A stretch of 64,000 nucleotides of DNA, from the NCBI GenBank assembly GCA_016874795.1, contig VGTG01000004.1, forward strand, positions 11,734 through 75,733. The letters are read 5' to 3'. Below, piece by piece: positions 9,504 through 41,257 of the stretch. The DNA is from Deltaproteobacteria bacterium. GTDB lineage: Bacteria; Desulfobacterota; Binatia; UBA12015. Within the stretch, counting starts at the first letter, position 1, and every line of letters starts with the position of its first letter. Under the pieces are notes generated by a model that was not told the origin of the DNA, did no database searches, and saw nothing but the letters and a program-made list of their open reading frames with translations. Position numbers and translations under genes: made by a program.

Positions 9504-9579
9504 GCGACGGTCTCGCGCGCTTCGTCGCAGGCGTCAAGTGACGCGCGCCGTCGCGCTGTGTGTGCTAGGCCGGTCCGCC

Positions 9580-16616: not shown

Positions 16617-16653
16617 CGAAGGTCCTCCCTTGCCGTCTTCGGACCAGTCTTCG

Positions 16654-17460: not shown

Positions 17461-17575
17461 GGCATGCCTCCTAGTGAGACCAGAGGTCTCACAAATATAG
17501 GCGCGGATACAAGTCTTGCAATCCGTTTCAGATGCCAATAGCGTGCGGCGCGAGACCGACGGTCTCACCGCGCCA

Positions 17576-19860: not shown

Positions 19861-20291
19861 AGCGCGTCCTCGGCGAGAGCTGGGCGGTGCCGAGCCTCGA
19901 TTCCCACAACCGCGACTTCTTCACGAAGGGCGTCCTGACGCTGCAACGGTGCACGCAGTGCAAGCACGTCCAGCATCCGCCCGAGGACGTCTGCGAGGCG
20001 TGTCAGGGTTTCGAGCTCGACGGCTTCGCGAGCGCCGGCGTCGGCCGGATCGAGAGCGTCGCCGTGGTGACGCAGTCGGTCCACCCGCTTCTCGCGGATC
20101 GCGTCCCGTACGCGATCGTCCTCGTTTCGGTCGAGGACGCGCCGGGCATCCTCGTTGCGGGCAATGTCGTCGGAAGCGACGCGGACGCGGTACGCATCGG
20201 TGATCGCGTCCGCGTCGTCTTCGAGGACGCGACCGACCCGAGGAGCGGGGAGAAGCTCGCGATCCCGCAGTGGGAAGTGATCGACGCATGA
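19857..20291 (+). CDS. DUF35 / OB-fold plus zinc-ribbon protein (thiolase-associated)
   Basis: CTQCKHVQHPPEDVCEAC is a C4 rubredoxin-like zinc ribbon followed by an OB fold. This is the characteristic partner of SCP-x thiolases. Confidence 0.75.
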   Translation: MKRVLGESWAVPSLDSHNRDFFTKGVLTLQRCTQCKHVQHPPEDVCEACQGFELDGFASAGVGRIESVAVVTQSVHPLLADRVPYAIVLVSVEDAPGILVAGNVVGSDADAVRIGDRVRVVFEDATDPRSGEKLAIPQWEVIDA

Positions 20292-21532: not shown

Positions 21533-22821
21533 GCGCGCTCACCGGCATCCGCGTGATCGAGCTCGCGCACGAGCGCATCGCGTTCGCGGGAAAGCTCCTC
21601 GGCGACATGGGCGCGGACGTCGTACTCGTCGAGCCTCCGGGCGGCGCGCCCATGCGCCTTCACGAGCCCTTCGTCGACGACGTCCCGGATTCCGAGCGAA
21701 GCCTGACCTGGTGGCACTACAACACGAGCAAGCGAGGCATCGTCCTCGACTGGCGGCGGGGCGACGGCCGCGAGGCGCTCGCGTCACTCCTCGCCGGCGC
21801 GGACGTCCTTCTCGAGGCGGAGGATCCAGGAGCTCTCGCAGCGGTCGGGCTCGGCGACGCCGTGCTGACCGGCTCGCTTTCGCGACTCATCCACGTTTCG
21901 CTGACGCCGTTCGGGCCGACCGGCGAGCGGCGAAACGAGCGAGCCACCGATCTCACGCTCCTCGCGGGCGGCGGTCCGGCGTGGAACTGCGGCTACGACG
22001 ACCACGATCTGCCGCCGATCCGCGGCGGCGGCGGCCATGGCTACGCGATCGGATGTCACTATGCAGCGATGTCGACTCTGACCGCGCTTCTCCACCGGGA
22101 GCTCGGCGGGCGAGGGCAACGGATCGACGTGTCGATGCACGCCGCCGCGAACGTGACGACGGAGATGGGCTCGTACAACTGGCTCGTCCAGAAGCGGACG
22201 GTCCAGCGCCAAACCGGTCGTCACGCGATGGATACGCCCTCGATGCCGTCGCAGGTCCGCTGCGCCGACGGACGCTACGTCAACACCGGCGTTCCGCCGC
22301 GCACGCCGCAGGAGTTCGGCAGGCTTCTCGCGTGGCTGCGCGCGCTCGGGCTCGAGGCGGAGCTGCCCGAGGCCGTCTTTCTCGCCCTCGGCGCGGAGCG
22401 CGAGCGCATCGACCTCTCCAAGATCGGGTTCGACGACGAGACGACAGCGATCTTTGCCGCGGGCCGCGAGGCGCTCGTTCTGATCGCGAGTCGCGTCTCT
22501 GCGGAGGACTTCTTTCTCGGCGCACAGAGGGCCGGGCTGCCCGCCGGTGTGATCTACTCTCCCGAGGAGGCATTCGAGGATCCGCACTTCCGCGCGCGCG
22601 GCATGCAGATCGAGGTCGAGCAGCCGCAGCTCGGTCGGACGGTGCGCTACCCGGGACCGCCCTATGCCTTCGAGAAGAGCAAGTGGGCGATCTCACGCCC
22701 CGCTCCGACACTCGGTCAGCACACCGAGGAAGTTCTCTCCGACGCCGGGCTCGACGTCGCCTCCCTCTCGCGGAGCGGCGCTCTGGGGCGGCCCGCTGCC
22801 GTGCAAGCGAAGGACGGCTGA
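21529..22821 (+). CDS. Family III CoA-transferase (second, adjacent paralog)
   Basis: GIRVIELAHERIAFAGKLLGDMGADVVLVEPP. The GTG start overlaps the upstream stop. Confidence 0.8.
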   Translation: MSALTGIRVIELAHERIAFAGKLLGDMGADVVLVEPPGGAPMRLHEPFVDDVPDSERSLTWWHYNTSKRGIVLDWRRGDGREALASLLAGADVLLEAEDPGALAAVGLGDAVLTGSLSRLIHVSLTPFGPTGERRNERATDLTLLAGGGPAWNCGYDDHDLPPIRGGGGHGYAIGCHYAAMSTLTALLHRELGGRGQRIDVSMHAAANVTTEMGSYNWLVQKRTVQRQTGRHAMDTPSMPSQVRCADGRYVNTGVPPRTPQEFGRLLAWLRALGLEAELPEAVFLALGAERERIDLSKIGFDDETTAIFAAGREALVLIASRVSAEDFFLGAQRAGLPAGVIYSPEEAFEDPHFRARGMQIEVEQPQLGRTVRYPGPPYAFEKSKWAISRPAPTLGQHTEEVLSDAGLDVASLSRSGALGRPAAVQAKDG

Positions 22822-27106: not shown

Positions 27107-28297
27107 GTGAAGCTCCGTCTGACGAGGGCACAGGAAGAGCTGCGAGACTCGCTGCGGGCCTTTCTCGATGCCGAGCTCCCGCCCGAGCACGAGGAGGGGC
27201 CGGAGTCCGCGGAATGGGCGCCCGACGAGGAGTACGAGTGGATCCGTGCGTTCAACCGCCGCATGGGAGCGGCCGGGTGGCTCGTGCCGCACTGGCCGGT
27301 CGAGTACGGCGGCCGCGGCCTCGGGATCCTGGAGCAGGTGATCGTGCGGGAGGAGCTCGCCTACCGGCGTGCTCCGCTCATCAATCCGAACGGGCTCTCG
27401 ATGCTCGGTCCCATCCTGATGAAGGAGGGAACGGAAGAGCAGAAGGCCCTCCACCTTCCAGGCATCGCGAGCGGCGATGTGATCTGGGCGCAAGGCTACT
27501 CCGAGCCCAACGCCGGCTCGGACCTGGCAGCCCTGCAGATGCGCGCCGAGCGCGACGGAGACGAGTACGTCCTGAACGGCCAGAAGACCTGGACGAGCTC
27601 TGGGATGCGGGCGCAGTGGATGTTCCTCCTCGCGCGGACGTCGAAGGAGAAGCGCCGGCAGGAGGGCATCACGTTTCTCCTCGTCGACATGCGCACGCCG
27701 GGAATCGAGGTCCGGCCGATCGCCTCGATGACCGGAACCGTCACGTTCGCGGAGGAGTTCTTCACCGACGTCCGCGTCCCCATCGAGAACCGCGTCGGAG
27801 AGGAGGGCGACGGTTGGAGAGTCGGGAAGTCGCTCCTCTCCTTCGAGCGCTCGAACATCGCGCGCGCGGCGCGCGAGCGCCGCATCCTCGACGATCTGAT
27901 TGCGTACTGCCGCACGCAGGCGGGAACCCTTCGCGATCCGCTCGCCGACCCGATCGCGCGAAGCGAGCTCGGCCGCATGATCGAGCGCGTCGAGGTGGGC
28001 CGGGCGATCTGCTACCGCGTCGCGGCGATGCAGGCGGAAGGTCACGTGCCGCCGCACATGGCCTCGATCTCGAAGCTCTATCATTCGGAGTTCGCGGCAG
28101 AGCTGGTCGACGTGGGATCGCGCCTCCTCGGCGAGTATGGAAACGTCATGCCGGGCGACCCTCATTGCCTGGCTCGCGGCCAGTTCAGCCTCGGAGTGAT
28201 GAAGCAGCTTCTCCACAAGATTGGCGCCGGAACGAGCGAGATCCAGCGCGACATCATCGCACAGACCGGCGCGCAGCTGCCGAAGTCGGCCAGGTGA
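27107..28297 (+). CDS. Acyl-CoA dehydrogenase
   Basis: Three-domain ACAD (QGYSEPNAGSDLA..., QKTWTS, C-terminal catalytic Glu region IGAGTSEIQRDIIA). GTG start. Confidence 0.85.
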   Translation: MKLRLTRAQEELRDSLRAFLDAELPPEHEEGPESAEWAPDEEYEWIRAFNRRMGAAGWLVPHWPVEYGGRGLGILEQVIVREELAYRRAPLINPNGLSMLGPILMKEGTEEQKALHLPGIASGDVIWAQGYSEPNAGSDLAALQMRAERDGDEYVLNGQKTWTSSGMRAQWMFLLARTSKEKRRQEGITFLLVDMRTPGIEVRPIASMTGTVTFAEEFFTDVRVPIENRVGEEGDGWRVGKSLLSFERSNIARAARERRILDDLIAYCRTQAGTLRDPLADPIARSELGRMIERVEVGRAICYRVAAMQAEGHVPPHMASISKLYHSEFAAELVDVGSRLLGEYGNVMPGDPHCLARGQFSLGVMKQLLHKIGAGTSEIQRDIIAQTGAQLPKSAR

Positions 28298-28489
28298 GTA
28301 GAGCACCTCGGGGCGGACGCGTTCCCGAACGAGGGAAGCCTCGCATCGCGATCGCTGCGAAAGATCACCTGCGGCGGAGCCGCTCGACGAAGAAGCTCGG
28401 CGGCTCCTGGACGTGACTGTCCGCCGAGATCAAGGGCAAGCTGTCGATATCCACGACTCCTCCTTCGCTCGCGTCCGGGAAATCCTGGC

Positions 28490-29071
28490 TCACGTGCTCT
28501 TCCGTTTCCCGGAGTTCGACCCGGGGGCGCGCCCCTCGAGCTCCTTCCAGAATCGATCCCAGCTCGGCCACGCTTCGGGAAGGCGTCCCGTCCCGAGGCC
28601 GTCATCGCCGATCCCGGCTCCCGCGCGCGGACGCTCCAGCGCGTCCACCATGAACCATCGGTGGAGCTTGCGGCGGACGAAGTACCAGCGGCCGTCGCGC
28701 CGCTCGTAGCGGTCCCAGTACTGGACGTACCCGTTGCCCCAGTCGCGGTGACGGTCGATCTCCTCGCGACAGTAGACGACGCCGCTGGCGTGATCGGCGT
28801 CCTCGAAGTCGAAGACGTGGTTCGCGACGAGGTGGATGCTCGTACCGACGCGCGCGAGCGCTTCCAGGAACCACGCACGGAGCGCTTCGCGTCCAGAGGC
28901 GTCGCGTCCGACGCGCACGTCCTCCACGAAGAGCTCGACCAGATCGTCGAGGTTCCGCGTGTCGATCGCGAGAGCGTAGCGATGCGGGAGCTGGCGAATC
29001 TCCTCGACGCTCTCGAGGCGATCGATCCGCGCAGCGAGGTCGCGGGGGCGATGAGGGTCGTCTCGGGACAT
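28490..29071 (-). CDS. SnoaL-like / NTF2-fold protein
   Basis: About 190 aa with alpha+beta cone-fold composition, adjacent and divergent to a P450. The start was chosen at the internal ATG (MSRDDPH). Confidence 0.55.
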   Translation of the reverse strand: MSRDDPHRPRDLAARIDRLESVEEIRQLPHRYALAIDTRNLDDLVELFVEDVRVGRDASGREALRAWFLEALARVGTSIHLVANHVFDFEDADHASGVVYCREEIDRHRDWGNGYVQYWDRYERRDGRWYFVRRKLHRWFMVDALERPRAGAGIGDDGLGTGRLPEAWPSWDRFWKELEGRAPGSNSGKRKST

Positions 29072-29126
29072 CGAGCCTCCGATGCAGGCTTTCGCCATAT
29101 TGTGCGATGAAACAAAAGTTGATTAT

Positions 29127-30329
29127 ATGTCCGATGTGTCGGTTTCCGGCAACTTCGACTTCCGCCCGGACGACGCCGGATGGTACCTCGGCGATCCGCA
29201 CGCCGCGTACCGGCGGCTCCGTCGCGAGGCTCCGTTGCACTGGTATGAGCCCGATCGCTTCTGGTTTCTCACCAAGCACGCCGACGTCTTCGCGGTGTCG
29301 AAGGACCCGGCGACCTTCTGCAGCAGCAAGGGGTTCCGGATCCACGACAACCTGCGCACGGGGGGCGGCATCGAGGGGATTCCGCCGTCGATCCTCGGCA
29401 TGGACCCTCCCGATCACACGCGATACCGAGGACTCGTCAGCCGCTTTTTCACGCCGCGCTCCATGAACCACATCGAGGAGCGGATTCGCGAGATCGCCCG
29501 CGAGGCGCTCGATCGGATCGAGACCGGAAAGGTCGTCGACTTCGTCGAGCTCGTCTCGGTCCCGCTACCCGTTCTCGTGATTGCGGAGCTCCTGGGCGTT
29601 CCGCTGGAAGATCAGAAGAAGTTCAAGGAGTGGTCCGACGATCTCATCGCGGCGAACGACGGGAACATGGAGGCGGTCGGACGCGTCGCGGACCTCTTCG
29701 CGTACATGATCGGGCATGCACTCGATCGACGCAGTGCGCCGCGGGACGATCTCCTCACGGTCGTCGCGACGGGCGAGCCGAACGGTCGCCTTCTGGACGA
29801 CATGGAGCTCGGTATCTTCGGCGTCTCGCTCCTCGGTGCGGGGAACGAGACCACGCGCAATGCGATCTCCGGCGGCGCGATCGCGCTCATGGAGAACCCC
29901 GAGCAACGGGCCCTTCTCGTCGAAGACCCGTCGCGGATCGCAAGTGCGGTCGAGGAGATCGTGCGCTGGGTTTCGCCGATCAAGTCCTTCGCGCGTACCG
30001 CCACGTGCAATACCGAGATCCGGGGCCAGCGGATCGCGGCAGGGGATTTCGTGGTGCTGAGCTACACCTCCGCGAACCGCGACGAGGAGGTCTACGGTCC
30101 CACCGCTGAAGAGCTCGACGTTCGTCGTACCGGAGCGGCAGCACATCTGGGCTTCGGCGTGGGACAGCACTTCTGCCTGGGAGCCCATCTCGCGCGGCTC
30201 GAGCTCAAGATCCTCTTCGAGGAGCTGCTCGCGCGCTTTCCGCGATTCGAGCTCGCCGGAGAAGTGCAGAGGCTTCGCTCCACGCTCATCAACGGCGTCG
30301 AGCACCTCCCCGTCGTCTTCTCGTCCTGA
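29127..30329 (+). CDS. Cytochrome P450
   Basis: Heme-thiolate loop FGVGQHFCLGAHLARLE, I-helix GAGNETT, K-helix EEIVRW. Confidence 0.85.
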   Translation: MSDVSVSGNFDFRPDDAGWYLGDPHAAYRRLRREAPLHWYEPDRFWFLTKHADVFAVSKDPATFCSSKGFRIHDNLRTGGGIEGIPPSILGMDPPDHTRYRGLVSRFFTPRSMNHIEERIREIAREALDRIETGKVVDFVELVSVPLPVLVIAELLGVPLEDQKKFKEWSDDLIAANDGNMEAVGRVADLFAYMIGHALDRRSAPRDDLLTVVATGEPNGRLLDDMELGIFGVSLLGAGNETTRNAISGGAIALMENPEQRALLVEDPSRIASAVEEIVRWVSPIKSFARTATCNTEIRGQRIAAGDFVVLSYTSANRDEEVYGPTAEELDVRRTGAAAHLGFGVGQHFCLGAHLARLELKILFEELLARFPRFELAGEVQRLRSTLINGVEHLPVVFSS

Positions 30330-30363
30330 GCGCCGCGCGGAGGAGCGTCACGGAGGAACGTCC

Positions 30364-31683
30364 ATGAGTCTCCCGGTCGAAGATCTCGTCCTGGTGTCCG
30401 TCGACGATCACCTCGTCGAGCCGCCAGACATGTTCGAACGGCACGTCCCGGCGACCTATCGAGACCGCGCGCCGCGCATCGAGGAGCGCAACGGTACGCA
30501 GGCCTGGGTCTTCGAGGGGAGAGTGACCCCGAACATCGGGCTTGCAGCGACCGTCGGACGGCCGCGCGAGGAGCTCGGTCTCGAGCCCAATCGCTTCGAT
30601 CAGATGCGAGAGGGGTGCTACGACGTCGACGCCCGCGTTCAGGACATGAACGCGAACGGAACGTTCGCCTCCCTCTGCTTCCCGACGGTGCCCGGCATCC
30701 ACGGCGCGCTCTTCAGCAGGGTCGAGGACCGCCAAATCGGTCTCGTCATGCTGCAGGCGTACAACGACTGGCACCGGGAAGAATGGGTCGGGGCGCACCC
30801 GACGCGCTTCCTGCCTCTGGCGCAGATTCCGTACTGGGACCCGAAGCTCGCGGCGGACGAGGTCCGGCGCATGGCTCGTCGGGGATGCCGAGCGTTCAAC
30901 TTCTGCCAGAACGTGTCGGCGATGGGGTTTCCGAGCATCCACGACCCGCACTGGGATCCCTTCTTCACGGCAGTCTGCGACGTGGGCGGTGTGCTCACCG
31001 TCCATCTCGGAACCAGCGGCAAGGCGATGTTCAACTCGATGGACGCGCCCTACAGCGGCTACATGGCGATGGTGAACATCGACATGGCGAGCTTCGCCTG
31101 CGACCTCATCTTTTCGCCCGTCTTACAGCGGTTTCCGCACCTGCGGATTGCAATGTCGGAAGGCGGCATCGGCTGGATCCCGTTCTTCCTCGAGCGGTGC
31201 AAATGGATCCACGAGCGCCACAGCATCTGGGCGCACGATGACCTCGGCGGCCGAACGCCGCTCGAGGTCTTTCGCGAGCACTTCCTCACCTGCTTCATCG
31301 ACGACCCATGCGGCATCGAGATGCGCGACAAGATCGGGATCGACCTGATCAGCTGGGAGTGCGACTACCCGCACTCCGACACGACCTGGCCCGAGTCTCC
31401 CGAGTTCATGGCCAAGCAGCTCGAGGGCTTGACCGCCGACGAGATCGACAAGATCACGCATCGAAACGCGCTCCGCTTCTTCGGATCGGACGTGCTCGAG
31501 CAGGTCGGCCGCGAGAACGCGAACGTGAAGGCGCTGCGCGCGAAGGCCGCGGGGCTCGACCTGCGCGCGCCGAGCGCCGAAGGCATGACGGGTCCGCCCA
31601 AGGGCGAGAAGCGTCAGCTCCGCGTGAGCGACCTCATGTACCAGATCATGGGAGGGGGCACCGAGGCCCGGGGCTCGACGTGA
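30364..31683 (+). CDS. Amidohydrolase-2 family metal-dependent hydrolase (PF04909-like)
   Basis: LVLVSVDDHLVEPP...WECDYPHSD. 439 aa. Confidence 0.85.
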   Translation: MSLPVEDLVLVSVDDHLVEPPDMFERHVPATYRDRAPRIEERNGTQAWVFEGRVTPNIGLAATVGRPREELGLEPNRFDQMREGCYDVDARVQDMNANGTFASLCFPTVPGIHGALFSRVEDRQIGLVMLQAYNDWHREEWVGAHPTRFLPLAQIPYWDPKLAADEVRRMARRGCRAFNFCQNVSAMGFPSIHDPHWDPFFTAVCDVGGVLTVHLGTSGKAMFNSMDAPYSGYMAMVNIDMASFACDLIFSPVLQRFPHLRIAMSEGGIGWIPFFLERCKWIHERHSIWAHDDLGGRTPLEVFREHFLTCFIDDPCGIEMRDKIGIDLISWECDYPHSDTTWPESPEFMAKQLEGLTADEIDKITHRNALRFFGSDVLEQVGRENANVKALRAKAAGLDLRAPSAEGMTGPPKGEKRQLRVSDLMYQIMGGGTEARGST

Positions 31684-33287
31684 CGGTGCGCGGCGGGATC
31701 CCGGATCCCGGCTATGACACGTTTCCCGCCATGCTGCGCCACCTCTGCGAGCGGTTCGGCGCTCGCGAGTGCGTCGTGATCGGAGACGACCGGCTCCGCT
31801 TCGCGGAAGCGGACGCCGCGTCGGCGCGACTCGCGCGGCGGCTTCTCGCGAGCGGCGTCGGGAAGGGGACCCGCGTCGGACTTCTTGCTCCGAACGGTCC
31901 GGATTTCGTCATCGGGATGCTCGCCGTCTGCCGGCTCGGCGCGATCCTCGTACCCATCAATACCTTCTTTCAGGCAGACGAGCTCGCATGGACGCTTCGC
32001 CATGCCGACGTGCAGACGCTGCTGACGGTGCCGCGGCTCCTCTCACACGACTACCTGGCCCGACTCGAGGAAGCGGTGCCGGGCCTTCGCTCGGCCGCGG
32101 GACCAGACCTGCTCCTCCCATCGATGCCGTACCTCCGGCAGATTCGCGTGCTCGGAGAGAGCGACCGTCGCTGGTGCCGAACGGAAACGCGCGCCGAGGA
32201 TGCCGGCTCTCCGATGGTCGATGCGGACCTGCTCGACGCGATCGAGGCTCGAGTGTGCACGTCCGACGAAGCGCTCATCATCTACACCTCGGGCAGCACG
32301 GCCGAGCCGAAGGGTATCGTGCACACGCAAGGAGCGCTCGTCCGGCACGCCTGGTGGCTCGGTCGGGAGCACGGCTTCGTCCCGGAAGATCGCGTGTTCA
32401 CGCCGAACGCTTTCTTCTTCATAGGCGGCTTCGTGTTCAGCTTGCTCGCGCCCATGCAGATGGGCGCGTGCCTGATCTGCGAGGAGCGCTTCGAGCCCGG
32501 CGAGACCCTCGCGCGAATCGAGAGGGAGCGGGCGACGATCGTCACCGGGTGGCCGCACTACGGTCCGGCGATGGCGCGACACGAGAGCTTCTTGCGAAGG
32601 GACCTCTCCGCCGTCCGTGCGGGCTATCTCTTCGAGATCTTGCCGCCAGGCGCCGTGCGCTTCCATTACAGCCTCGGGATGACGGAGACGTGCGGCTCGC
32701 ATTGCTTCTGGCCGCCGGAACGGGAGCTACCCGCGGGTTCGCTCGGCGTGGCCGTTCCCGGCGTCGAGCACGATGTGATCGATCCGGAGAGCGGCGCAGC
32801 GCTTCCGCCCGGGGAGCCCGGCGAGCTTCGCGTCCGAGGCTACACGGTGATGCAGGGCATGTATGGTCGCACGCGCGAGGAAGTGCTCGAGCCCGACGGC
32901 TGGTACCGCACCGGCGATCGCGTCACTCTCGACGAGAACGGTCACGTCTACTTCCACGGCCGCCTCGGCGACCTGATCAAGACGGGCGGTGCGAACGTCT
33001 CGCCGCAAGAGGTCGAGCGCGCTCTCGCGGAGCTGCAGGGCGTCCTCGAAGCGCACGTCGTCGGGCTACCGGACGCCGAGCGAGGTCAGCTCGTCGCCGC
33101 CGCGGTCGTGCTCGACGGAAGCGTCCCTCTCGAAGCGGACGAGCTCCGCTCGGAGCTTCGAGCGAAGCTGGCCGCCTACAAGGTCCCGAAGCGGTTCGAC
33201 TTCTTCGCGAAGCAGGACCTGCCGTACAAGGCGACCGGCAAGATCGACAAGCGAGCGCTCGTCGAGCGGATGGGGGGAAGCAGATGA
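31679..33287 (+). CDS. Acyl-CoA synthetase (AMP-forming, ANL superfamily)
   Basis: IIYTSGSTAEPKGIVHT is the P-loop/A3 motif, with YSLGMTE, and GWYRTGDR...GRLGDLIKTGGANVSPQEVE (A8 to A10). The GTG start overlaps the upstream stop. Confidence 0.8.
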
Positions 33288-34522
33288 GAGCCAACGCGAT
33301 GGATCGGGATCTGTCCCCGGACCTCCTCCTCGAACCGTCCATCATCGACGATCCGTACGACTTCTATCGTCGTCTCGTTTCGGAAGCTCCGGTGTGGCAC
33401 GTGCCCGGGACGGACATCGTGATCGTGAGCTCCTGGGAGGCCGTGACGCAGGTCGTGAACCGCGTCGAAGACTTCTCTTCGAACATCCACTCGATCCTTT
33501 GCCGGAGCGCGCTCGGCACCCCGGAGCTGGTCCCCATGGGATTCGGCGGTCTCCAGGCGCTCGCCACCGCCGATCCGCCGATGCACGGAGCGCATCGGAG
33601 CACGGTGTTTCCGGAGCTCGTCGCCCGCCGGATGGCCGGACTCCGAACGAGCATCGAAGCGCTCACGGAAGAGTGCCTCACCCACGCACTGTCGAAGCGT
33701 CGGTTCGAGGTGATGGGCGACCTGGCCAACCTGATCCCGATCCGGGTCGTGAGCCAGCTGATCGCCTTCCGGGGCGCGGACCCCGCGGCGCTGCTCGCCG
33801 CCGCATTCGACTCCACCGCGATGCTCGCCGCGACGCTACCGCTCGAGGGGATTCAAGCGCTCATGGCACGTACGGTCGACATCGCGACCTGGATCGCCGA
33901 CCAGCTGCAGCAATCCGTCATTCAGGGCGGGGAAGGAATCTTCGGAGTGATCGGCGCGGCCGTGGCCGCCGGGGAGATGGAATTCGACGCGGGGCTCGTC
34001 ATCCTGCACACGCTGCTGAGCGCCGGCGGCGAATCGACGACGAGCCTTCTCGGCAACGCGATCCACATGCTCGCTCTCGATCCGCGATTGCAGACTCGGC
34101 TTCGCACCGAGCCACACCTCGTCGTGCCCTTCATCGAAGAAGCTCTCCGGCTCGAGTCGCCATTCCGCTACCATCTTCGCCGCGCGAGTCGCGCGAGCGA
34201 GGTGCAGGGTGTCGGCATTCCAGCGGGATCGACGCTGCTGCTCTTCTGGGGTGCTGCCAACCGCGATCCGGCCGAGTTCGAGCGTGCCGACGACGTGATG
34301 CTCGATCGAGCCACTCCGAAGCACCACGTCGCGTTCGGACGGGGAATCCACTTCTGCGTCGGCGCGCCGCTCGCTCGCCTCGAGGCGGAGATCGTCCTCA
34401 CGCGGCTTCTTGCGCAAACCGAGCACTTCGAGCTCGATCCAGATGCCGTGCCCGAACGGGTCGACAGCCTGATGGTTCGTCGCTTCGACACCTTGCCGTT
34501 GGTGGCGGAGTTGAGCTCTTGA
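33284..34522 (+). CDS. Cytochrome P450 (second)
   Basis: FGRGIHFCVGAPLARLE, ESPFRY (EXXR/PERF region). Confidence 0.85.
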   Translation: MRANAMDRDLSPDLLLEPSIIDDPYDFYRRLVSEAPVWHVPGTDIVIVSSWEAVTQVVNRVEDFSSNIHSILCRSALGTPELVPMGFGGLQALATADPPMHGAHRSTVFPELVARRMAGLRTSIEALTEECLTHALSKRRFEVMGDLANLIPIRVVSQLIAFRGADPAALLAAAFDSTAMLAATLPLEGIQALMARTVDIATWIADQLQQSVIQGGEGIFGVIGAAVAAGEMEFDAGLVILHTLLSAGGESTTSLLGNAIHMLALDPRLQTRLRTEPHLVVPFIEEALRLESPFRYHLRRASRASEVQGVGIPAGSTLLLFWGAANRDPAEFERADDVMLDRATPKHHVAFGRGIHFCVGAPLARLEAEIVLTRLLAQTEHFELDPDAVPERVDSLMVRRFDTLPLVAELSS

Positions 34523-34534
34523 TGATCGGCCGTC

Positions 34535-36061
34535 TCAGGACGGATCGCCGACGAATATTGCGCGTACCTCGGGCTGGCTGACCTTGAGCGACGGCGTGCG
34601 CGGCAAGGCGGGCACGATCCGGATCTCGGCAGGGACCGCGTACGTCGCGAGGTGCTCCCGCGCGAACCGAAGGAGCGTTTCGCCGTCGACCACGGCGTCA
34701 TCATGCAGCTCGACGGCGGCGACGGGAATCTGACCGAGACGCGGGTCGGGGAGGCCAACCACGCAGGCGTCACGCACGGCAGGATGCGCGATGAGCGCTT
34801 GCACCACGTCGCTGGGCAGGATCTTGAAGCCGCCGCGCAGGATCGCATCGTCGTCGCGTCCGACGATCCAGAGGAAGCCGTCGGCGTCGATGCGGCCGAG
34901 ATCGGTCGTCCGCTGCCACGCACCTTCGCGAGCGGAGCGGACCTCGATCCGTCCGGTCTCGCCTTCGGAAAGGGGATCGCCCGACACCCCGTCGACGATG
35001 CGCACATCGCGTCCGGGCTGCGGGCGACCGACGCTTCCTCGCTTCGTCTCTCCCCACTCGCGGTGCAACGCGAGCGTCCAGCCGGCGACGCCGCCCGCAA
35101 ACTCGGTTGCGCCGTAGGAAGGAAGGACCGGGATCCCATAGCGGAGTTCGAACGCGAGCTGCACCTGCGGGTCGAGCTTCGCGGTCCCGGACGTGACGAC
35201 CTGGATGCTCGACAGGTCGGCCGGATCGACGTCCGCTTCCAGCACCATGCGCACCGCCGTCGGGACGAGGCTCACGGCGCGCGGGCGGTGACGGCGTACG
35301 AGATCGACCCACGACTCCACTGCGAAGCGTGGCAAGAGCGCGATCTTGCGACCCTCGCAGACGTTCAGGAGCGTGCGGAAGAGCCCCGACATGTGAACGA
35401 AGGGAGAGCTCACGATGGCGACACCCTTCGCGAGCCGCGGAGCGTCGTCGGCGTCGCCCTTGGTGGCGTAGTGGCTCTTCGCCGCCGTGATCGTGCGCTC
35501 GAAGGCCGCGCGCTCGAGCGGAATCCTCTTCGGCGGACCAGTCGTGCCGCTCGTCAGCATCTCGACCGCGACGCCGCGCGACGCCGCGCGGTGCGGCCCG
35601 CTGCCGGCGCGCTCGAGGCCGGGAGCGAGCCTCACGGGATCGAGAGGATCCCCGGTCAGGACGATGCCGACCGCCTTCGTTTCCAGCGCCGCTGCTCGGA
35701 TCGAAGCGCGCTCCCAGTCCTCGGCCGCCGCGAGAACGACCCGGGTGCGCACGTCCACGATGTCGCGTGCGACCTTCGCATCTCCCTGATGCGGGTTCAG
35801 CGTCACGATGCACCGCTCGGCCACGACGGCGCTGAGCATCGCGGCGACCATCGGCGGCGTGTTGCGCAGGAGCATCCCGATCGGTCCGTGCGGATCGGGG
35901 TCGGCCTTCGTCAGGATCTCGGCCAGCCCGTCGATCACACGGGAAAGGTCGCGCCAGGAATGCCACCTTCCCTCGAGCTCGATCGCCGGAGCGTCGGGGT
36001 CGATGGCAAGGATCGCGTGAACGCGCTCGGCGAGGGTGGCCGACGCCTCGCGCGCCGTCAT
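34535..36061 (-). CDS. Acyl-CoA synthetase / AMP-dependent ligase (second, divergent type)
   Basis: LTSGTTGPPKRIPL (A3), SYGATEFAG (A5), DLGRIDADGFLWIVGRDDDAILRGGFKILPSDV (A8-A10). The true start was chosen at MTAREAS. The stop overlaps the next ACAD start (ATGA). Confidence 0.8.
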   Translation of the reverse strand: MTAREASATLAERVHAILAIDPDAPAIELEGRWHSWRDLSRVIDGLAEILTKADPDPHGPIGMLLRNTPPMVAAMLSAVVAERCIVTLNPHQGDAKVARDIVDVRTRVVLAAAEDWERASIRAAALETKAVGIVLTGDPLDPVRLAPGLERAGSGPHRAASRGVAVEMLTSGTTGPPKRIPLERAAFERTITAAKSHYATKGDADDAPRLAKGVAIVSSPFVHMSGLFRTLLNVCEGRKIALLPRFAVESWVDLVRRHRPRAVSLVPTAVRMVLEADVDPADLSSIQVVTSGTAKLDPQVQLAFELRYGIPVLPSYGATEFAGGVAGWTLALHREWGETKRGSVGRPQPGRDVRIVDGVSGDPLSEGETGRIEVRSAREGAWQRTTDLGRIDADGFLWIVGRDDDAILRGGFKILPSDVVQALIAHPAVRDACVVGLPDPRLGQIPVAAVELHDDAVVDGETLLRFAREHLATYAVPAEIRIVPALPRTPSLKVSQPEVRAIFVGDPS

Positions 36062-37155
36062 GCGAGCGTCTCCTCGAGATGGCGGACGACGTCTTCGCGA
36101 AAGCCGCTCCGCTCTCCGAGAAGCGCCGTCAGCGTCGCGGCTCTTCGCAGGAAGAGATGGATGTCGTGCTCCCAGGTGGTCCCGATCCCGCCGAAGACCT
36201 GCAAGGCACCCTCCGGCACCTTGCGAAGATCGTCCAGAGCGGCGAACGCGGCCATCGAGGCGAGAGCACTCCGCTCCTCCCCGCTGGCGCGGGCCGCGCC
36301 CTGACAAAGAGCCCGAGCGACCTCCACGTGAGCGCGCAGGTTCACCAGGCGATGCTGGATCGCCTGAAAGCTTCCGATGGGGCGATCGAACGCGACCCGG
36401 GTCTTGGCGTACTCGACCGCGAGCTCGAGAGCCCGGTCGGCGACGCCGACGAGCTCGGCGCAACGCGCGATCGTCTCGAGGGAGAGTGCATCGCGCAGAA
36501 CCCTTCGCGCTTCGTCGTCCCGGGCGATCGGCTTCGCGTCGACGTCGCGCAGCCGGATCTCCGCGCACGGCGAGCCGTCGAGCAAGCGGAGCGCGCGTCG
36601 ATCCACGCCCGTCGTCTCGGCCTCGACCTCGTACAGGCCGAACGCGCCGTCTCGGGTCGTGGCACCGACGATCAGCCGCTCGGCTTCCCGTCCGTACGGA
36701 ACGAAGCGCTTCTCCCCGGTCAGGCGGAATCCGCCGTCGGCCTCGACCGCGACGGCGCTCGTCCGTAGGCGATCGCTCGTCCTCTCGCCCTCACCGTGCG
36801 CGAGAATCGCCAGCTCCGAAAACCTGGCCATCTGCGTCCCGCGCAGGATCGCTCGTCCGACTACGCAGGGAACGAGCGGCGTCGGCGCCAGCGCGCGTCC
36901 CGTTTCCTCCGCGATGGCGCAGAGCTGGGTCGCGCCGAGTGAACCTTCGGATTCGGCCGCGAACGGATCGATCTCGTGCCAGCCGAGACGCCTCATTCCC
37001 TCCCAGAGCGCGGGCGCATCGGCGAGCCCGTCCCCTTCGATGCACGCGCGCAGCGACGAGAGCGACCACTCGCGCCGAAGGAAGTCGGCGGCCGCTTCTC
37101 GGACCGCGATCCGTCGCTCTTCGGCTCCGGCGAGCTCTTCGAGGTTGCGAGTCAT
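36058..37155 (-). CDS. Acyl-CoA dehydrogenase family protein (shorter, about 365 aa), likely the partner subunit of the adjacent ACAD
   Basis: ACAD C-terminal helical domain (FDRPIGSFQAIQHRL...). Both ends overlap neighbouring genes by 4 nt. Confidence 0.8.
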   Translation of the reverse strand: MTRNLEELAGAEERRIAVREAAADFLRREWSLSSLRACIEGDGLADAPALWEGMRRLGWHEIDPFAAESEGSLGATQLCAIAEETGRALAPTPLVPCVVGRAILRGTQMARFSELAILAHGEGERTSDRLRTSAVAVEADGGFRLTGEKRFVPYGREAERLIVGATTRDGAFGLYEVEAETTGVDRRALRLLDGSPCAEIRLRDVDAKPIARDDEARRVLRDALSLETIARCAELVGVADRALELAVEYAKTRVAFDRPIGSFQAIQHRLVNLRAHVEVARALCQGAARASGEERSALASMAAFAALDDLRKVPEGALQVFGGIGTTWEHDIHLFLRRAATLTALLGERSGFREDVVRHLEETLA

Positions 37156-38372
37156 TTCCCCGTCCCGCTGCTGCGCGGCAGACCGAGGACACGCTCGGCG
37201 ATGACGTTGCGCTGGATCTCTGACGTGCCGCCGCCGATCGTCGCAGCGCGCATGATGAGGTAGCTGAGGGGGACGTTCCCGCCCTTCAGTGCGTGCGGGG
37301 ACCCGCGGACGAGCGCGGCGTACGGTCCGGCGAGATCCATCGCATAGTCGGCCATGGCCTGATCCAGCTCCGACGTGAGGAGCTTCGCGATCGAGACCTC
37401 GGGCCCCGGGGAAGCACCGCGGAGGCTCGCGGCGTTCGCGCGCGCGGCGAGGTTGCGCAGCGCCTCCACCCGGACGGCGAAGCGTGCGAGATGCTCGCGC
37501 ACGATCGGATCCTCCCACCGTGGCTTCTCGTCGACGGTGATCTCTCGAGCGAGGGCGACGAGGATCTCGAGTCGTCGCTCGATCCGACTCGTGCGGGAGA
37601 GTCCGGCGCGCTCGTAGCGCAGCGTGGAGTTCGCGATCCGCCAGCCGGCGTTCTGCTCGCCGACGAGGCACCGTCGCGGCACGCGGACCTCGTCGAAGAA
37701 CACCTCGTTGAACTCGGACCTGCCGCTGATCTGCCGCAGCGGGCGGACCGTGATTCCCGGGGTGCGCATGTCGACGAGGAAGCAGCTGAGCCCCTCGTGC
37801 TTCGGCGCGCTCGGATCGGTCCGCGCGAGGACGTAGCACCAGTCCGCGAGATGGGCCTTCGACGTCCAGACCTTCTGGCCCGTCAGGACGAATTCGTCTC
37901 CGTCGAGAACGGCGCGCGTGCGAATGGCCGCGAGATCGCTCCCGGCGCCCGGCTCGCTGAATCCCTGACACCAGACGTCGTCGCCGGAGAGGATCCTCGG
38001 CAGGAAGTGCCCCTTCTGCCAGTCACTTCCCCACTGGATGATCGTCGGCCCGATGTAGGCGATGGCGCTTCGGTTGATCGGGTCGGGCGCGCGCCGACGC
38101 GCCATCTCCGAATCGTAGATCATCTGCTGGACGAAGCCGGCATCGCGGCCGCCGTACTCCTTCGGCCAGGCGATGGCGACGAGCCCCGCTTCGAACAGCC
38201 GGCGTTGCCACTCGCGCTGGAACTCGACACGCGAAGCCTCGTCGCGTGGCCCCTCGTACTCGAGCGTTCCCCAGCCCGCGGGCAGGCACTCGTCGAGAAA
38301 TGCGCGTACCTCGGCGCGGAACGCCTCGTCCTCGTGTGTGAGGTGGAGCTCGAGATCCGCGCGCCGCTTCAC
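37152..38372 (-). CDS. Acyl-CoA dehydrogenase
   Basis: QGFSEPGAGSDLAAIRT, QKVWTS, IGGGTSEIQRNVIA. GTG start; both ends overlap neighbours by 4 nt. Confidence 0.8.
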   Translation of the reverse strand: MKRRADLELHLTHEDEAFRAEVRAFLDECLPAGWGTLEYEGPRDEASRVEFQREWQRRLFEAGLVAIAWPKEYGGRDAGFVQQMIYDSEMARRRAPDPINRSAIAYIGPTIIQWGSDWQKGHFLPRILSGDDVWCQGFSEPGAGSDLAAIRTRAVLDGDEFVLTGQKVWTSKAHLADWCYVLARTDPSAPKHEGLSCFLVDMRTPGITVRPLRQISGRSEFNEVFFDEVRVPRRCLVGEQNAGWRIANSTLRYERAGLSRTSRIERRLEILVALAREITVDEKPRWEDPIVREHLARFAVRVEALRNLAARANAASLRGASPGPEVSIAKLLTSELDQAMADYAMDLAGPYAALVRGSPHALKGGNVPLSYLIMRAATIGGGTSEIQRNVIAERVLGLPRSSGTGK

Positions 38373-40486
38373 GGTGGAAGATCCTCGAGCGTGCACTCGC
38401 CGAGCCGCGGCGGAGGCTGCAAGGGGATCGCCGGTCCTCCGACGAATCGCCATGCGAGCCCGACGAGCTTCGCTTCGGCGAGGTCGGGATCGGGATGGTC
38501 GACTCTCGGAAAGAAGCCGCGCGCCCGGAGGTGAGGATCCTCGACCAAGTCGGCGCCGCTCCAGGCCGGGCAGGCGCGCACGCCGGCGCGCTGGAGCGAG
38601 TGGAAGAGGTCATTGGCGGCGACTTTACGCGTGAGCTCATCGAGCGCGAATTCGATCGTACGGCGAGTCTCCCAGCGTCGGGACTCGTCGCTCCAGCTCG
38701 GCTCGCGGAGAATTTCCGGGTTGCCGAGCGCTTCGACGAGCGCTCTCCACTCGCTGTCGGACTGCACGGAGATCGCGATCCAGCGACCGTCGGCGGTCGG
38801 ATGGAAGCCGTGCGGAGCGTGCGGAGGACGATCGCTCCCGGCGGGTATCGTGCGCTTCTCGGCGAGCGACGCCTCGGCGATGAACTCTCCCACCTTGTCG
38901 GCGACGACCTCGGCCATGGAGAGATCGACGACGCCTCCGTGCCGGCGCCGGCCGAGAGCCCAGGCGGCGATCACGGTTGCCGCCGTGAGGGCAGAGAGCG
39001 GGTCGGCGATCACGGTTCCGACGTGAAGCGGAGCGCCGTCCGCGGCGCGCGTCAAGTGACTCAGCCCGCCGTAGGCGTGGACGTTGTTCGCGTAGGCGCG
39101 GTACCCGGCGAGCGGCCCGGACTGTCCGAAGCCCGAGATGCTGACGAAAAGGAGATCGCGACGCGCGGAGGCTTCCGCCGCGACGCCGAGGCGCGCCATC
39201 CGCTTCGATCCGAAGTTCTCGAGCACGACGTCGCTCCAGCACGCGAGCCGGGGCGCTGCCTCGGGCTCCGCCTCGACGTCGACGGCGATGCTCCGCTTCG
39301 AGTGGTTCGATACGGCGAAGTACGCACCTCGTTCCTTCCCGGGAACACCGTGCGCGAACGGGCCGGTCCGACGATAGAGATCGAGCCGCGCGAGGTCTTC
39401 GAAGCGAACGACTTGCGCACCCATCGCGCCGAGCAGGGCACCGGCGATCGGTGCGGCGAGAACGTGAGTGAACTCCGCGACGCGGAGCCGACGCAGACCT
39501 GCGCCGTTGGCATCCGTGTCGCCGACCTGGCTCGCGCTCGGTGTCCACGTGTACGGACGGCCGGGAAGGCGGGCAGCGACGTCGCCGAGCTTCGCGCTCT
39601 CGAGGAAGCCGCGCGATGCGAGCTGTGGAGAGGCGAGGAGATCGTCCGGAGTGTTGACGGGCGTCGCCGGAACCCCGTGCGCTTGGAGTCTCTCGGCGCA
39701 GTCGTGGATGCCGAACGCCGCGGTCCAGCTCTCGATCTCGCGATTGATCGCCTCCGCGTTCGTTGCGCGGGCCTCGCGGCCTTCGAAACCGCGCGTCCAG
39801 CCGGGAGTTCCGAGAGCGCGAACGAGCCCTGCCCATTGATGGTCGTCGGGTGCGGTGATCCGAACGAATCCGTTGCGGCAGCGAAAGAGGCCGGAGGGTG
39901 CGACGTAACGGCCGCTACCTGCGCGTCCGGGGCACGCGTAGATCGCATGCGCGCACTCCGGCAAGGCGCCGAGCATCGCCACGGCTTCCTGCGCGGACAC
40001 GTCGACGTGCACGGGGCGGCCGGTCTCGCGTCTCCGGTCGAGCCCGTGGAGCGCCGCGAGCGCCGCGACCTGCCCGGTCGCGAGCAGCCCCTGGAAGCCC
40101 GGCAGGAGGGAAGGGCGTCCGCCGTCGCGGGGTGCGATCGTCGCAGCGAGACCGCCGGCGGCCGAGGAGACGAGCTCGGAGCCGAGGTACTTCGAGTACG
40201 GGCCCGTCAGGCCGAACGCCGTCGTCGTCACCCAGACGCCCTCGTCGTGGCGCTCGACGAGACGGACGTACTTCGCGAGGTCGCGAGGCAGACCGGCGTC
40301 GTCGACGACGCGATCGCAGACGATGATGTCGGCGCCGGCGAGAAGTCCCGAACCGAGCGAAGCTTCCCGTGTCGTCTTGTCGCGATCGAGGAGGGCGCTC
40401 AGGATCGAGATCCGACCGCCCGAAGAGGTCGCGAGGTTCGGCGCGTAGGCCGGCGGGACACTCGCCGCGGGCACGAGCTTCGTCAC
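38369..40486 (-). CDS. Tandem-fused family III CoA-transferase (two CaiB/BaiF-like modules in one 705-aa polypeptide)
   Basis: The first module has GADIIVCD... and the second starts at about residue 330 with LRVAEFTHVLAAPIAGALLGAMGAQVVRFE (the Rossmann N-motif repeated). The exact start is uncertain. Confidence 0.75.
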   Translation of the reverse strand: MTKLVPAASVPPAYAPNLATSSGGRISILSALLDRDKTTREASLGSGLLAGADIIVCDRVVDDAGLPRDLAKYVRLVERHDEGVWVTTTAFGLTGPYSKYLGSELVSSAAGGLAATIAPRDGGRPSLLPGFQGLLATGQVAALAALHGLDRRRETGRPVHVDVSAQEAVAMLGALPECAHAIYACPGRAGSGRYVAPSGLFRCRNGFVRITAPDDHQWAGLVRALGTPGWTRGFEGREARATNAEAINREIESWTAAFGIHDCAERLQAHGVPATPVNTPDDLLASPQLASRGFLESAKLGDVAARLPGRPYTWTPSASQVGDTDANGAGLRRLRVAEFTHVLAAPIAGALLGAMGAQVVRFEDLARLDLYRRTGPFAHGVPGKERGAYFAVSNHSKRSIAVDVEAEPEAAPRLACWSDVVLENFGSKRMARLGVAAEASARRDLLFVSISGFGQSGPLAGYRAYANNVHAYGGLSHLTRAADGAPLHVGTVIADPLSALTAATVIAAWALGRRRHGGVVDLSMAEVVADKVGEFIAEASLAEKRTIPAGSDRPPHAPHGFHPTADGRWIAISVQSDSEWRALVEALGNPEILREPSWSDESRRWETRRTIEFALDELTRKVAANDLFHSLQRAGVRACPAWSGADLVEDPHLRARGFFPRVDHPDPDLAEAKLVGLAWRFVGGPAIPLQPPPRLGECTLEDLPP

Positions 40487-40606: not shown

Positions 40607-41257
40607 CTAGGTGAGTCCGCGGATCACGTGCTCCCGGAAGAAGCGTCGCCAGGTCTCCGGATCGGATCCGTTGAAGGTCACCGCGGGCATCGACGAGATC
40701 GTGAACAGCATCCGCCCGATCCACTCGGAGGCCCGTCGCGCGTTGACGTTGCTCCGCAGCTCTCCTCGCTTGATCGCCGCTTCGACGAACGGCACGAGGA
40801 ATTCGACCGTGTCGCGGAGGAGGGGCTCGGAGTGGCTCGTGAGCAGCATCGCGAGTCGCTCCCGACTCACGTCGATCCGACTGCGAGCGCCGCTCGCGAC
40901 GTCGTGCTCGAACGAGGAGAGGATCCCTGCGCATTCCACGACCTGCTCTTCGAGCGTGGCGAGGCTCTCGAGCTGCTTCCGCATGCTGTCGTGGAACAGA
41001 TGGCTCTCGTACGCGAAGACGGCCTCGATCAGCTCGGCGCGCTCCGTGAAATAGCGATAGACGGTCCCACGCGAGAGATTCGCAGCCTTTGCGACGTCGG
41101 AGATGGACGTCTTCTCGGTTCCGAAGCGGAGAAAGCATGCACGCGCGGCGCGAAGGATTTGCTCGCGGACGCGCTCCTGCGCCGATTCGGGAACGGTCGC
41201 GACGGGAGCCGTCGTCGCGGACGGCGTGCGAACCTTTCGAGCTTGGCTGGCGCCCAT
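40607..41257 (-). CDS. TetR-family transcriptional regulator
   Basis: ISDVAKAANLSRGTVYRYFTERAEL is a TetR HTH. Confidence 0.8.
   Translation of the reverse strand: MGASQARKVRTPSATTAPVATVPESAQERVREQILRAARACFLRFGTEKTSISDVAKAANLSRGTVYRYFTERAELIEAVFAYESHLFHDSMRKQLESLATLEEQVVECAGILSSFEHDVASGARSRIDVSRERLAMLLTSHSEPLLRDTVEFLVPFVEAAIKRGELRSNVNARRASEWIGRMLFTISSMPAVTFNGSDPETWRRFFREHVIRGLT

Follow-up and report, generated by a model that had tools for sequence, protein, structure and literature searches.

The window analysed here, a stretch of 64,000 nucleotides from contig VGTG01000004.1 of a deltaproteobacterial assembly, contains at 28490-36061 a block of six genes: a SnoaL-like gene, two cytochrome P450 (P450) genes, a gene of Pfam family PF04909 (Amidohydro_2) and two genes for coenzyme A (CoA) ligases. 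The PF04909 protein of this block, whose gene starts at 30364, and a second intact one whose gene starts at 17516 are almost certainly oxygenases of the amidohydrolase-related dinuclear oxygenase (ARO) superfamily and not hydrolases. We base this assignment on their best matches, which are the oxygenases DitZ and PtmU3, on the presence of both superfamily motifs, on conserved His and Glu residues, and on a fold match. We further consider it fairly probable that the block serves as one module of a catabolic island, in which it oxygenates a hydrophobic carboxylic acid, probably an alicyclic or terpenoid one, and activates it with CoA. The exact proteins have been deposited as MBM4265327-47, where they are annotated as "amidohydrolase", "cytochrome P450" and "acyl-CoA ligase", and public records label the PF04909 proteins "amidohydrolase" or "metal-dependent hydrolase". 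Under such labels the locus seems to encode a pathway in which rings are opened by hydrolysis, and that pathway is probably not real.

AROs have the PF04909 fold with a diiron or Mn/Fe site and carry out O2-dependent C-H hydroxylation; work from the Rittle laboratory places PtmU3, AibH2, SfbO and DitZ among them (PMC10811679, PMC13154177). Their signature combines a D-x-H motif near the N-terminus, in beta strand 1, with a C-terminal D-x-P-H-x-D/E loop, which is expected after at least about 200 residues; the combination occurs in all characterised oxygenases of the fold and in no characterised hydrolase or decarboxylase (PMC13154177). Approximately 17,000 database "amidohydrolases" are estimated to be misannotated oxygenases (PMC10811679, PMC13154177). 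This kind of enzyme was defined only recently, with a literature from 2019-2026, and the window adds a member in a coherent catabolic setting while correcting a misleading annotation.

When we compared the 30364 protein with the PDB using phmmer, DitZ (8UYR) was matched at 7.7e-100 over residues 5-406 and PtmU3 at 1e-31. Among non-redox enzymes the values were 3.5e-14 for LigW, about 1e-11 for ACMSD and 1.4e-3 for LigY, and LigJ and LigI were absent from the list of PDB matches to this protein. The 17516 protein matched PtmU3 at 8e-55 and DitZ at 2e-25; its Pfam match to PF04909 (1.2e-23) was similar to that of the 30364 protein (1.5e-24). Both signature motifs are present in each: D14-D15-H16, within a predicted strand at residues 10-16, and D334-Y-P-H337-S-D339 in the 30364 protein, and D32-S33-H34 and D341-F-P-H-A-E346 in the 17516 protein, with the D-x-H motifs aligning to those of DitZ and PtmU3. 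Residues H214, E266, D334, P336 and H337 of the 30364 protein are invariant in 24 homologues, and the mid-barrel His and Glu align with "sLHIGgg" and "amSEGG" of DitZ and with "sIHIGtG" and "iAEAG" of PtmU3; from these alignments we infer that H214 and E266 are the remaining metal ligands.

The residues at positions gamma1, gamma2 and gamma4 are D/F/S in the 30364 protein and S/Y/A in the 17516 protein. A hydrophilic residue, Phe or Tyr, and a non-aromatic residue make up the "diiron-dependent" row in Table 1 of PMC13154177, a predictor of metal preference, and both intact AROs are accordingly predicted to fall in the diiron class, the 30364 protein as a diiron C-H hydroxylase. An AlphaFold 2 model of the 30364 protein (mean predicted local distance difference test score 84, predicted template-modelling score 0.88) was used as a Foldseek query and returned DitZ 8UYR first, at a template-modelling score of 0.84-0.87, followed by PtmU3, 4DZI and AibH2, with decarboxylases lower.

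These data bear directly on the hydrolytic ring opening that the original prediction had assigned to the PF04909 proteins, with the LigJ and LigY families as the suggested comparison. Under that explanation the proteins would be metal-dependent enzymes like LigY, LigJ or LigI, namely hydrolases, hydratases or lactonases, that open rings after P450 oxidation. The Amidohydro_2 match and the public label agree with it, and a gene similar to SMP-30/gluconolactonase and two luciferase-like monooxygenases elsewhere in the island could make lactones. LigY, LigJ, LigI, LigW and ACMSD do share the Pfam family and the triose-phosphate isomerase (TIM) barrel fold with the AROs of the window, but their similarity is marginal and they are without the ligand motifs of the dinuclear oxygenases (motif absence as given in PMC13154177); their metal site is mononuclear or missing and is built from N-terminal motifs other than D-x-H. 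With LigY at 1.4e-3 against 7.7e-100 for DitZ, the two motifs in place, and the fold search ranking DitZ, PtmU3 and AibH2 over all decarboxylases, we regard a hydrolase as extremely improbable. The PF04909 proteins would thus have unrelated functions, an outcome that the original prediction had named as telling against it, and its hydrolytic half is not supported.

Each of the two intact AROs has a characterised relative. DitZ, a diiron enzyme from Rhodococcus rhodochrous and Pseudomonas that hydroxylates dehydroabietic acid, has the same fold as the 30364 ARO, aligns with it over the full length, and shares identical D-D-H and D-Y-P-H-S-D motifs and the predicted diiron class; it acts on polycyclic diterpenoids (PMC13154177). 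PtmU3 (6OMP/6OMQ), the non-heme diiron C-5 hydroxylase of platensimycin and platencin biosynthesis, is the closest solved relative of the 17516 ARO at 35% identity. The two have in common the D-S-H motif, a D-x-P-H-x-E loop with its terminal Glu, and the metal-class residues, and CoA-ligase-dependent chemistry lies near the 17516 ARO, as with PtmU3. PtmU3 reportedly acts on CoA thioesters and is reported to hydroxylate the carbon beta to the thioester, the alpha carbon being quaternary (Dong et al. 2019). PtmU3 is biosynthetic, whereas the 17516 ARO shares a catabolic operon with genes for a thiolase-like protein, a DUF35 protein and two CoA-transferases.

The G+C content of the window is about 68%, and raw lists of open reading frames are crowded with shadow frames. 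Genes were called with a frame plot of GC content at third codon positions, and the calls agree with independent public gene calls on identical DNA, in contigs that derive from JGI, ENA and SRA metagenomes. The six genes of the block all have strong Pfam matches and intact catalytic motifs (Table 1), and the composition given in the original prediction (SnoaL-like, P450, PF04909, ligase, P450 and convergent ligase) was borne out gene by gene. The stop codon of the 30364 ARO overlaps the GTG start of ligase 1 as GTGA, the stop of ligase 1 overlaps the ATG of P450b as ATGA, and a GGAGGA ribosome-binding site precedes the ATG of the ARO. Because of these overlaps and this site, P450a, the ARO, ligase 1 and P450b are read as one translationally coupled operon on the plus strand.

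Ligase 2 is convergent to P450b, as the original prediction had described, with the stop codons 12 bp apart; it belongs, however, to an operon other than that of the rest of the block. A GTGA overlap joins the gene for a fused double CoA-transferase to that for a full-length acyl-CoA dehydrogenase, and ATGA overlaps join the two dehydrogenase genes to each other and the second of them to ligase 2. This arrangement makes ligase 2 the final gene in a separate minus-strand operon, after the CoA-transferase and the two dehydrogenase genes. The two dehydrogenase genes, one of which is degenerate in its N-terminal half, probably encode a single heteromeric enzyme; their best NCBIfam matches, all below threshold, were PimC-large, PimD-small and IpdE2.

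The SnoaL_4 gene forms a transcription unit by itself and points away from the P450 operon. Its nearest solved relatives are weak matches, the scytalone-dehydratase-like protein 3EF8 (1.7e-7) and the bile-acid 7-alpha-dehydratase BaiE (2.9e-5), and we regard its product as a candidate dehydratase. The annotated divergent starts of SnoaL_4 and P450a are 10 bp apart, and an alternative ATG at 29098 would give a SnoaL_4 protein of 202 aa. Despite the overall G+C content, an AT-rich patch, GATGAAACAAAAGTTGATTATATG, lies at 29105-29129 within the annotated 5' end of P450a; the true start of P450a may be the ATG at 29127, not the annotated start at 29082, and the patch may be a promoter/operator region shared by the two genes. 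A consensus scan for promoters and terminators over 28200-36200 gave no promoter-like site, and terminator-like sites were below shuffle expectation.

The heme Cys loops of all three intact P450s in the window are preserved (FGVGQHFCLG in P450a, FGRGIHFCVG in P450b and FGSGLHICLG in P450c), and P450a has the I-helix motif AGNETT. The solved relatives of P450a are a reconstructed CYP125 ancestor (2.7e-100), P450terp or CYP108 (7.5e-78), and CYP126, CYP125, CYP130 and CYP124 (about 1e-69 to 1e-65), with CYP153 also among them; CYP142 was not among the 60 best PDB matches. For P450b the best solved relative is CYP144 at 1.8e-76, with the runner-up at 3e-38. P450a and P450c align over their full length with CYP125, CYP124 and CYP108, which hydroxylate sterols, branched lipids and terpenes, and P450b does so with CYP144; the P450s of the window differ from these enzymes in having no clear placement in any named family, for which identity above 40% is the convention. 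The P450s did not cluster with fatty-acid omega-hydroxylases alone, the outcome that the original prediction had named as telling against it, but with a mixture of sterol, terpene and branched-lipid enzymes, and CYP144 for P450b. No established substrate is known for CYP144.

Ligase 1 retains the motifs TSGSTAEPK and TGD411 and the catalytic Lys in PYKATGKI (K521 region), and ligase 2 has TSGTTGPPK and the C-terminal Lys, so that by their motifs both fit the AMP-forming acyl-CoA synthetases of the ANL superfamily. A PDB search with ligase 1 gave no match at 1e-50. It also scored below the NCBIfam cut-offs for FadD3 (265 bits vs 657), CasG (213 vs 750) and cyclohexanecarboxylate-CoA ligase (160 vs 792).

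We asked what the remainder of the island, a region of about 46 kb whose borders are described below, contributes to this picture. By Pfam it has 7 acyl-CoA dehydrogenase genes, 4 crotonase-type enoyl-CoA hydratases, 2 thiolase-like/DUF35 pairs, 4 family-III CoA-transferase genes, 4 short-chain dehydrogenases/reductases (SDRs), 2 luciferase-like monooxygenases, the SMP-30/gluconolactonase-like gene and 3 TetR regulators. Six intact oxygenases are encoded in it: 3 P450s, 2 AROs and 1 Rieske enzyme. The 17516 ARO is the first gene of an operon of five overlapping or abutting genes at 17516-22821(+).

From these data we propose a scheme for the pathway. The P450s would oxidise unactivated C-H positions of the hydrophobic acid, possibly converting a methyl group to a carboxylate in the manner of CYP125, and ligase 1 would thioesterify the acid. 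With O2 and two electrons, the ARO would introduce a hydroxyl group at another unactivated C-H bond, probably in a ring, of the acid or its CoA ester; one of the newly formed alcohols might be dehydrated by the divergent SnoaL_4 protein. The convergent operon of CoA-transferase, heteromeric dehydrogenase and ligase 2 would provide CoA transfer and dehydrogenation of CoA esters, which the hydratases, thiolase-like/DUF35 pairs and dehydrogenases could then degrade by beta-oxidation-like and retro-aldol steps. Ring opening, if any, would come from that chemistry and not from hydrolysis. We favour a terpenoid-like substrate class because both characterised ARO relatives act on polycyclic diterpenoids and because of the relatives of the P450s. 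The remaining part of the original prediction, oxidative functionalisation upstream of beta-oxidation, agrees with two P450s and a CoA ligase in the block and beta-oxidation-type genes in the island. Taken with the full set of CoA-thioester enzymes, the oxygenase reading suggests that an uncultured lake bacterium breaks down a lipid that is recalcitrant and either highly branched or polycyclic.

A biosynthetic role was also considered, with the genes as a cassette that tailors a natural product, either a terpenoid or a polyketide, much as PtmU3 acts in platensimycin biosynthesis. PtmU3 is itself biosynthetic, about 1,600 of the approximately 17,000 predicted AROs fall within clusters predicted to be biosynthetic, and P450s, CoA ligases and SnoaL-like proteins often serve in tailoring. 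The 46-kb island, however, has no gene for a terpene synthase or cyclase, a prenyltransferase, a polyketide synthase (PKS), a nonribosomal peptide synthetase (NRPS), or resistance or export; what it has instead are dehydrogenases, hydratases, thiolase-like/DUF35 pairs, CoA-transferases, a 2-oxoacid dehydrogenase set and three TetR regulators. We think such a cassette very unlikely and, because terpene synthase, PKS and NRPS genes are missing, the island is by its gene content catabolic rather than biosynthetic.

The nature of the substrate was weighed separately. Were it a steroid (a sterol or bile acid), the genes would form a non-canonical side-chain or ring module with P450a CYP125-like and SnoaL_4 BaiE-like, and several features are in keeping with this: the best solved match of P450a is the CYP125 ancestor, BaiE is a weak match for SnoaL_4, and family-III CoA-transferases share their fold with alpha-methylacyl-CoA racemases. 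As in the actinobacterial steroid side-chain machinery, the island has a dehydrogenase pair with one degenerate subunit (compare FadE/ChsE) and thiolase-like proteins paired with DUF35/ChsH2 proteins (compare the Ltp2-ChsH2(DUF35) aldolase). That machinery differs in other respects, as no MaoC-type hydratase partner, KstD, KshA-type oxygenase with KshB, HsaABCD meta-cleavage genes or IpdAB were found in the island and NCBIfam equivalogs were not reached, the FadD3, CasG and IpdE2 models being far under their cut-offs. Extant CYP125 enzymes, at 5e-69 to 1e-61, match P450a no better than CYP126, CYP130, CYP124 and CYP108, and the diterpenoid substrates of both ARO relatives also argue against a steroid, which we hold to be unlikely.

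An acyclic substrate, either a methyl-branched or a long-chain lipid such as an isoprenoid or alkane-derived acid, would make the P450s omega-hydroxylases and the AROs in-chain hydroxylases. CYP124, an omega-hydroxylase of methyl-branched lipids, and CYP153 are among the relatives of P450a, the best sub-threshold NCBIfam matches of the ligases are long-chain fatty-acid CoA ligases, and beta-oxidation genes are abundant. Yet for both AROs the characterised relatives have polycyclic substrates, and plain branched-chain beta-oxidation would have no need of thiolase-like/DUF35 pairs, a Rieske oxygenase, a lactonase-like protein or an NTF2-fold dehydratase-like protein. We judge this alternative to be distinctly unlikely, and retain the alicyclic or terpenoid acid as the preferred substrate.

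Several points weigh against the proposed module, or limit what can be drawn from DitZ. The 30364 ARO is just 39% identical to crystallised DitZ; its median identity is 52% to its own group of 116 proteins vs 42% to 119 DitZ-type proteins, and the two groups have no sequences in common. On these figures it represents a separate, uncharacterised subfamily and not a DitZ orthologue, so the substrate and regiochemistry of DitZ are not transferable to it. In an NCBIfam scan of ten proteins, including every block protein, none reached a curated cut-off, and the two intact AROs matched no NCBIfam model whatever. No ferredoxin, Rieske ferredoxin or reductase gene was found anywhere in the window: a six-frame motif scan for 2Fe-2S, 3Fe/4Fe-4S and Rieske ferredoxins returned as its sole iron-sulfur motif the Rieske centre of the oxygenase, at 43639-43707. 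Electron donors for the island oxygenases must be encoded elsewhere; AROs of this class mostly have no Rieske ferredoxin gene in their vicinity (PMC13154177).

Other genomes support the association of these gene families. We examined 80 loci of homologous AROs (47-54% identity) in species-representative genomes, taking 10 kb around each ARO; most are from Acidimicrobiales and other Actinomycetota, with some from Myxococcales, Binatia and Spirochaetes and a few from cultured actinomycetes. Near the ARO there was an AMP-ligase in 42/80, an acyl-CoA dehydrogenase in 31/80, a P450 in 30/80, a hydratase in 30/80, a family-III CoA-transferase in 27/80, a second ARO in 25/80 and a thiolase-like gene in 23/80, all of these being raw counts without an enrichment control. 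Gene order varies between the loci, and the order P450, ARO, ligase seen in the block was present at one of them (L079). The idea of a conserved orthologous operon was dropped, since P450s and ligases that adjoin AROs elsewhere are only 28-49% identical to those of the block, and the association of ARO, P450 and ligase holds, by these comparisons, at the level of families.

Similar ARO surroundings were seen on plasmids of Massilia, Sphingopyxis and Rhodococcus, with an AMP-binding gene directly after the ARO on the Sphingopyxis plasmid. In a related metagenome-assembled genome (MAG) an ARO, a SnoaL_4 gene and a P450 gene are consecutive, and SnoaL_4 genes flank the orthologous ARO. The 30364 ARO, of a large sister subfamily of DitZ, is matched by more than 6,900 database proteins at E<=1e-30; the subfamily occurs mostly in Acidimicrobiia and other uncultured lineages, and finding a substrate for the operon of the 30364 ARO would annotate thousands of genes.

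For comparison we looked for the genomic setting of DitZ itself. A Rhodococcus zopfii gene (GCA_042729375.1) is 91% identical to crystallised DitZ, and its locus consists of ferredoxin, P450, DitZ, SDR and FAD-oxidoreductase genes, with a divergent TetR gene, a CoA ligase and a hydratase nearby. As in the block, a P450 lies directly upstream of the ARO and a CoA ligase is close by; the R. zopfii locus differs in having a ferredoxin and an FAD-reductase beside DitZ, neither of which is in the window. Its 1.5-kb stretch between the ferredoxin and the DitZ orthologue has no called gene (locus L098), and the P450 there is found by tblastn in two segments at 8867-9764, so that the gene is either uncalled or disrupted. 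The ARO on the Rhodococcus rhodochrous GD02 plasmid was rejected as DitZ, since at 38% identity it is a paralogue, and a tblastn search of PLSDB plasmids with a DitZ sequence rebuilt from the HMMER alignment gave a best match of 43%, by which the true DitZ locus is not on any of these plasmids.

The operon at 17516-22821 suggests a further, more tentative idea. Its set of five families (ARO, thiolase-like, DUF35 and two CoA-transferases) recurs in changed order in two MAGs, one of Gemmatimonadota (L009) and one of Actinomycetes (L040), and in a Logan contig (L015), and the sets carry different ARO subtypes. Thiolase-like/DUF35 complexes such as Ltp2-ChsH2 are retro-aldolases for tertiary beta-hydroxyacyl-CoAs in steroid side-chain cleavage. 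Putting this together with the beta-hydroxylation reported for PtmU3, we raise the possibility, which we consider doubtful, that AROs carry out the first step of a general bypass of quaternary carbons in terpenoid catabolism. A fully substituted alpha carbon, such as C-4 of resin acids and kauranes, would block the dehydrogenase and hydratase steps; the diiron enzyme would instead hydroxylate the beta C-H directly, and an Ltp2-like thiolase/DUF35 aldolase would cleave the resulting tertiary beta-hydroxyacyl-CoA by retro-aldol reaction and thereby open the ring. The five-family module would be the device for this, with the P450-ARO-ligase-P450 operon as another version of it that primes the substrate. 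The recurrent pairing of AROs with thiolase-like/DUF35 proteins thus offers a testable idea for how quaternary carbons in terpenoids are passed.

Table 1. Positions of the block genes and of other features discussed in the text; numbering is that of the window.
Feature	Position	Strand	Evidence or remark
SnoaL_4/NTF2-fold protein, 193 aa	28490-29071	-	Pfam SnoaL_4 9e-22
P450a	29082-30329	+	Pfam p450 1.5e-21; first gene of plus-strand operon
PF04909 protein (predicted DitZ-like ARO), 439 aa	30364-31683	+	Pfam Amidohydro_2 PF04909 1.5e-24
Ligase 1 (AMP-forming acyl-CoA ligase), 535 aa	31680-33287	+	Pfam AMP-binding 1.5e-65 and AMP-binding_C
P450b, 412 aa	33284-34522	+	Pfam p450 3e-21; last gene of plus-strand operon
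Ligase 2 (AMP-forming acyl-CoA ligase), 508 aa	34535-36061	-	Pfam AMP-binding 1.6e-51 and AMP-binding_C
Acyl-CoA dehydrogenase, degenerate N-terminal half	36058-37155	-	Pfam
Acyl-CoA dehydrogenase, full three-domain	37152-38372	-	Pfam
Fused double family-III CoA-transferase, 705 aa	38369-40486	-	Pfam CoA_transf_3 4e-111, two stretches; first gene of its operon
TetR gene	40607-41257	-	Upstream of CoA-transferase 38369-40486
Predicted PtmU3-like ARO (second intact PF04909 gene)	17516-18691	+	PtmU3 8e-55
Thiolase-like protein	18691-19860	+	Gene calls, Pfam
DUF35/ChsH2-OB	19857-20291	+	Gene calls, Pfam
Two family-III CoA-transferases	20288-21532, 21529-22821	+	Gene calls, Pfam
P450c, third intact P450 of the island	50084-51265	-	Pfam p450 4e-32; tblastn; 37% identical to P450a
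Pseudogene, ARO part (88 N-terminal codons)	16353-16619	-	43% identical to 30364 residues 2-88, E 8e-18
Pseudogene, P450 part, out of frame	16202-16354	-	63% identical to P450c residues 9-57, E 1e-14
PtmU3-like ARO relic, 42 codons, N-terminus only	28365-28493	-	tblastn 58% over 26 aa, E 9e-5
tmRNA gene (ssrA), tag ADNFYHLQAA	13878-14233		
Apparent serine recombinase remnant	14136-15332	-	Recombinase and Zn-ribbon domains; without N-terminal resolvase catalytic domain
IS256/Mutator-family transposase fragment	15393-16148	+	Pfam Transposase_mut; without first ~126 profile positions

Beyond the intact genes, tblastn of the block proteins against the whole window gave a tally of 3 intact P450s and 1 stub, and of 2 intact PF04909 genes and 2 relics. 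The original prediction had placed a third P450 at 50084 and a stub at 16194, and both are real. Its count of four P450s was exact, and its count of three PF04909 genes was roughly right, a slight undercount. The stub is a composite of PF04909 and P450 fragments at 16202-16619; it recurs in three independent assemblies and is cut off by the fragment of a transposase of the insertion sequence (IS) family IS256. The second PF04909 relic, beside the block, overlaps the stop of SnoaL_4 by 4 bp and is called as a gene in two public assemblies; its translation includes LPLISADSHVQEP / LPLISADSHVQEPPSFF, with the D-S-H motif kept.

The large serine recombinase, the 3' end of whose gene overlaps the tmRNA gene, and the IS256-family transposase both appear to be inactivated remnants. 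The last 19 nt of the tmRNA gene, TCGATTCCCCCCGCCTCCA, recur with 18/19 identity at 60584-60602 (blastn-short within the window, E 0.008), and the two copies enclose the remnants of the recombinase and the IS element, the pseudogene stubs, a toxin-antitoxin pair and the catabolic cluster in its entirety. The cluster has the appearance of a genomic island of about 46.4 kb (~14215-60602) that integrated at the 3' end of ssrA and whose integrase has since decayed. The closest relatives of the AROs (82-86% identity) are in a MAG labelled Gemmatimonadota (GCA_037387345.1), and the window proteins are filed as those of a MAG named "Deltaproteobacteria bacterium"; the two labels conflict, and as the cluster is possibly a mobile island neither of them settles the host. 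An actinobacterial origin, which the G+C content had suggested, was rejected in view of these deposits.

Three other features of the island complete the annotation. The Rieske oxygenase alpha subunit at 43393-44748(+), with Rieske and Ring_hydroxyl_A domains, is followed directly by an SDR gene and has no beta-subunit gene beside it; its matches to solved structures cover the Rieske domain alone, the best being phthalate 3,4-dioxygenase at 1.5e-28. The 2-oxoacid dehydrogenase set at 53318-56333(+) is split into a fused E1 alpha/beta protein of 674 aa, a lipoyl protein of 79 aa and an E2 catalytic domain of 208 aa, an arrangement that is also present beside the orthologous ARO in the Gemmatimonadota MAG. 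The toxin-antitoxin pair, a BrnT toxin with a helix-turn-helix antitoxin at 59337-59935(-), is close to the right border of the putative island.

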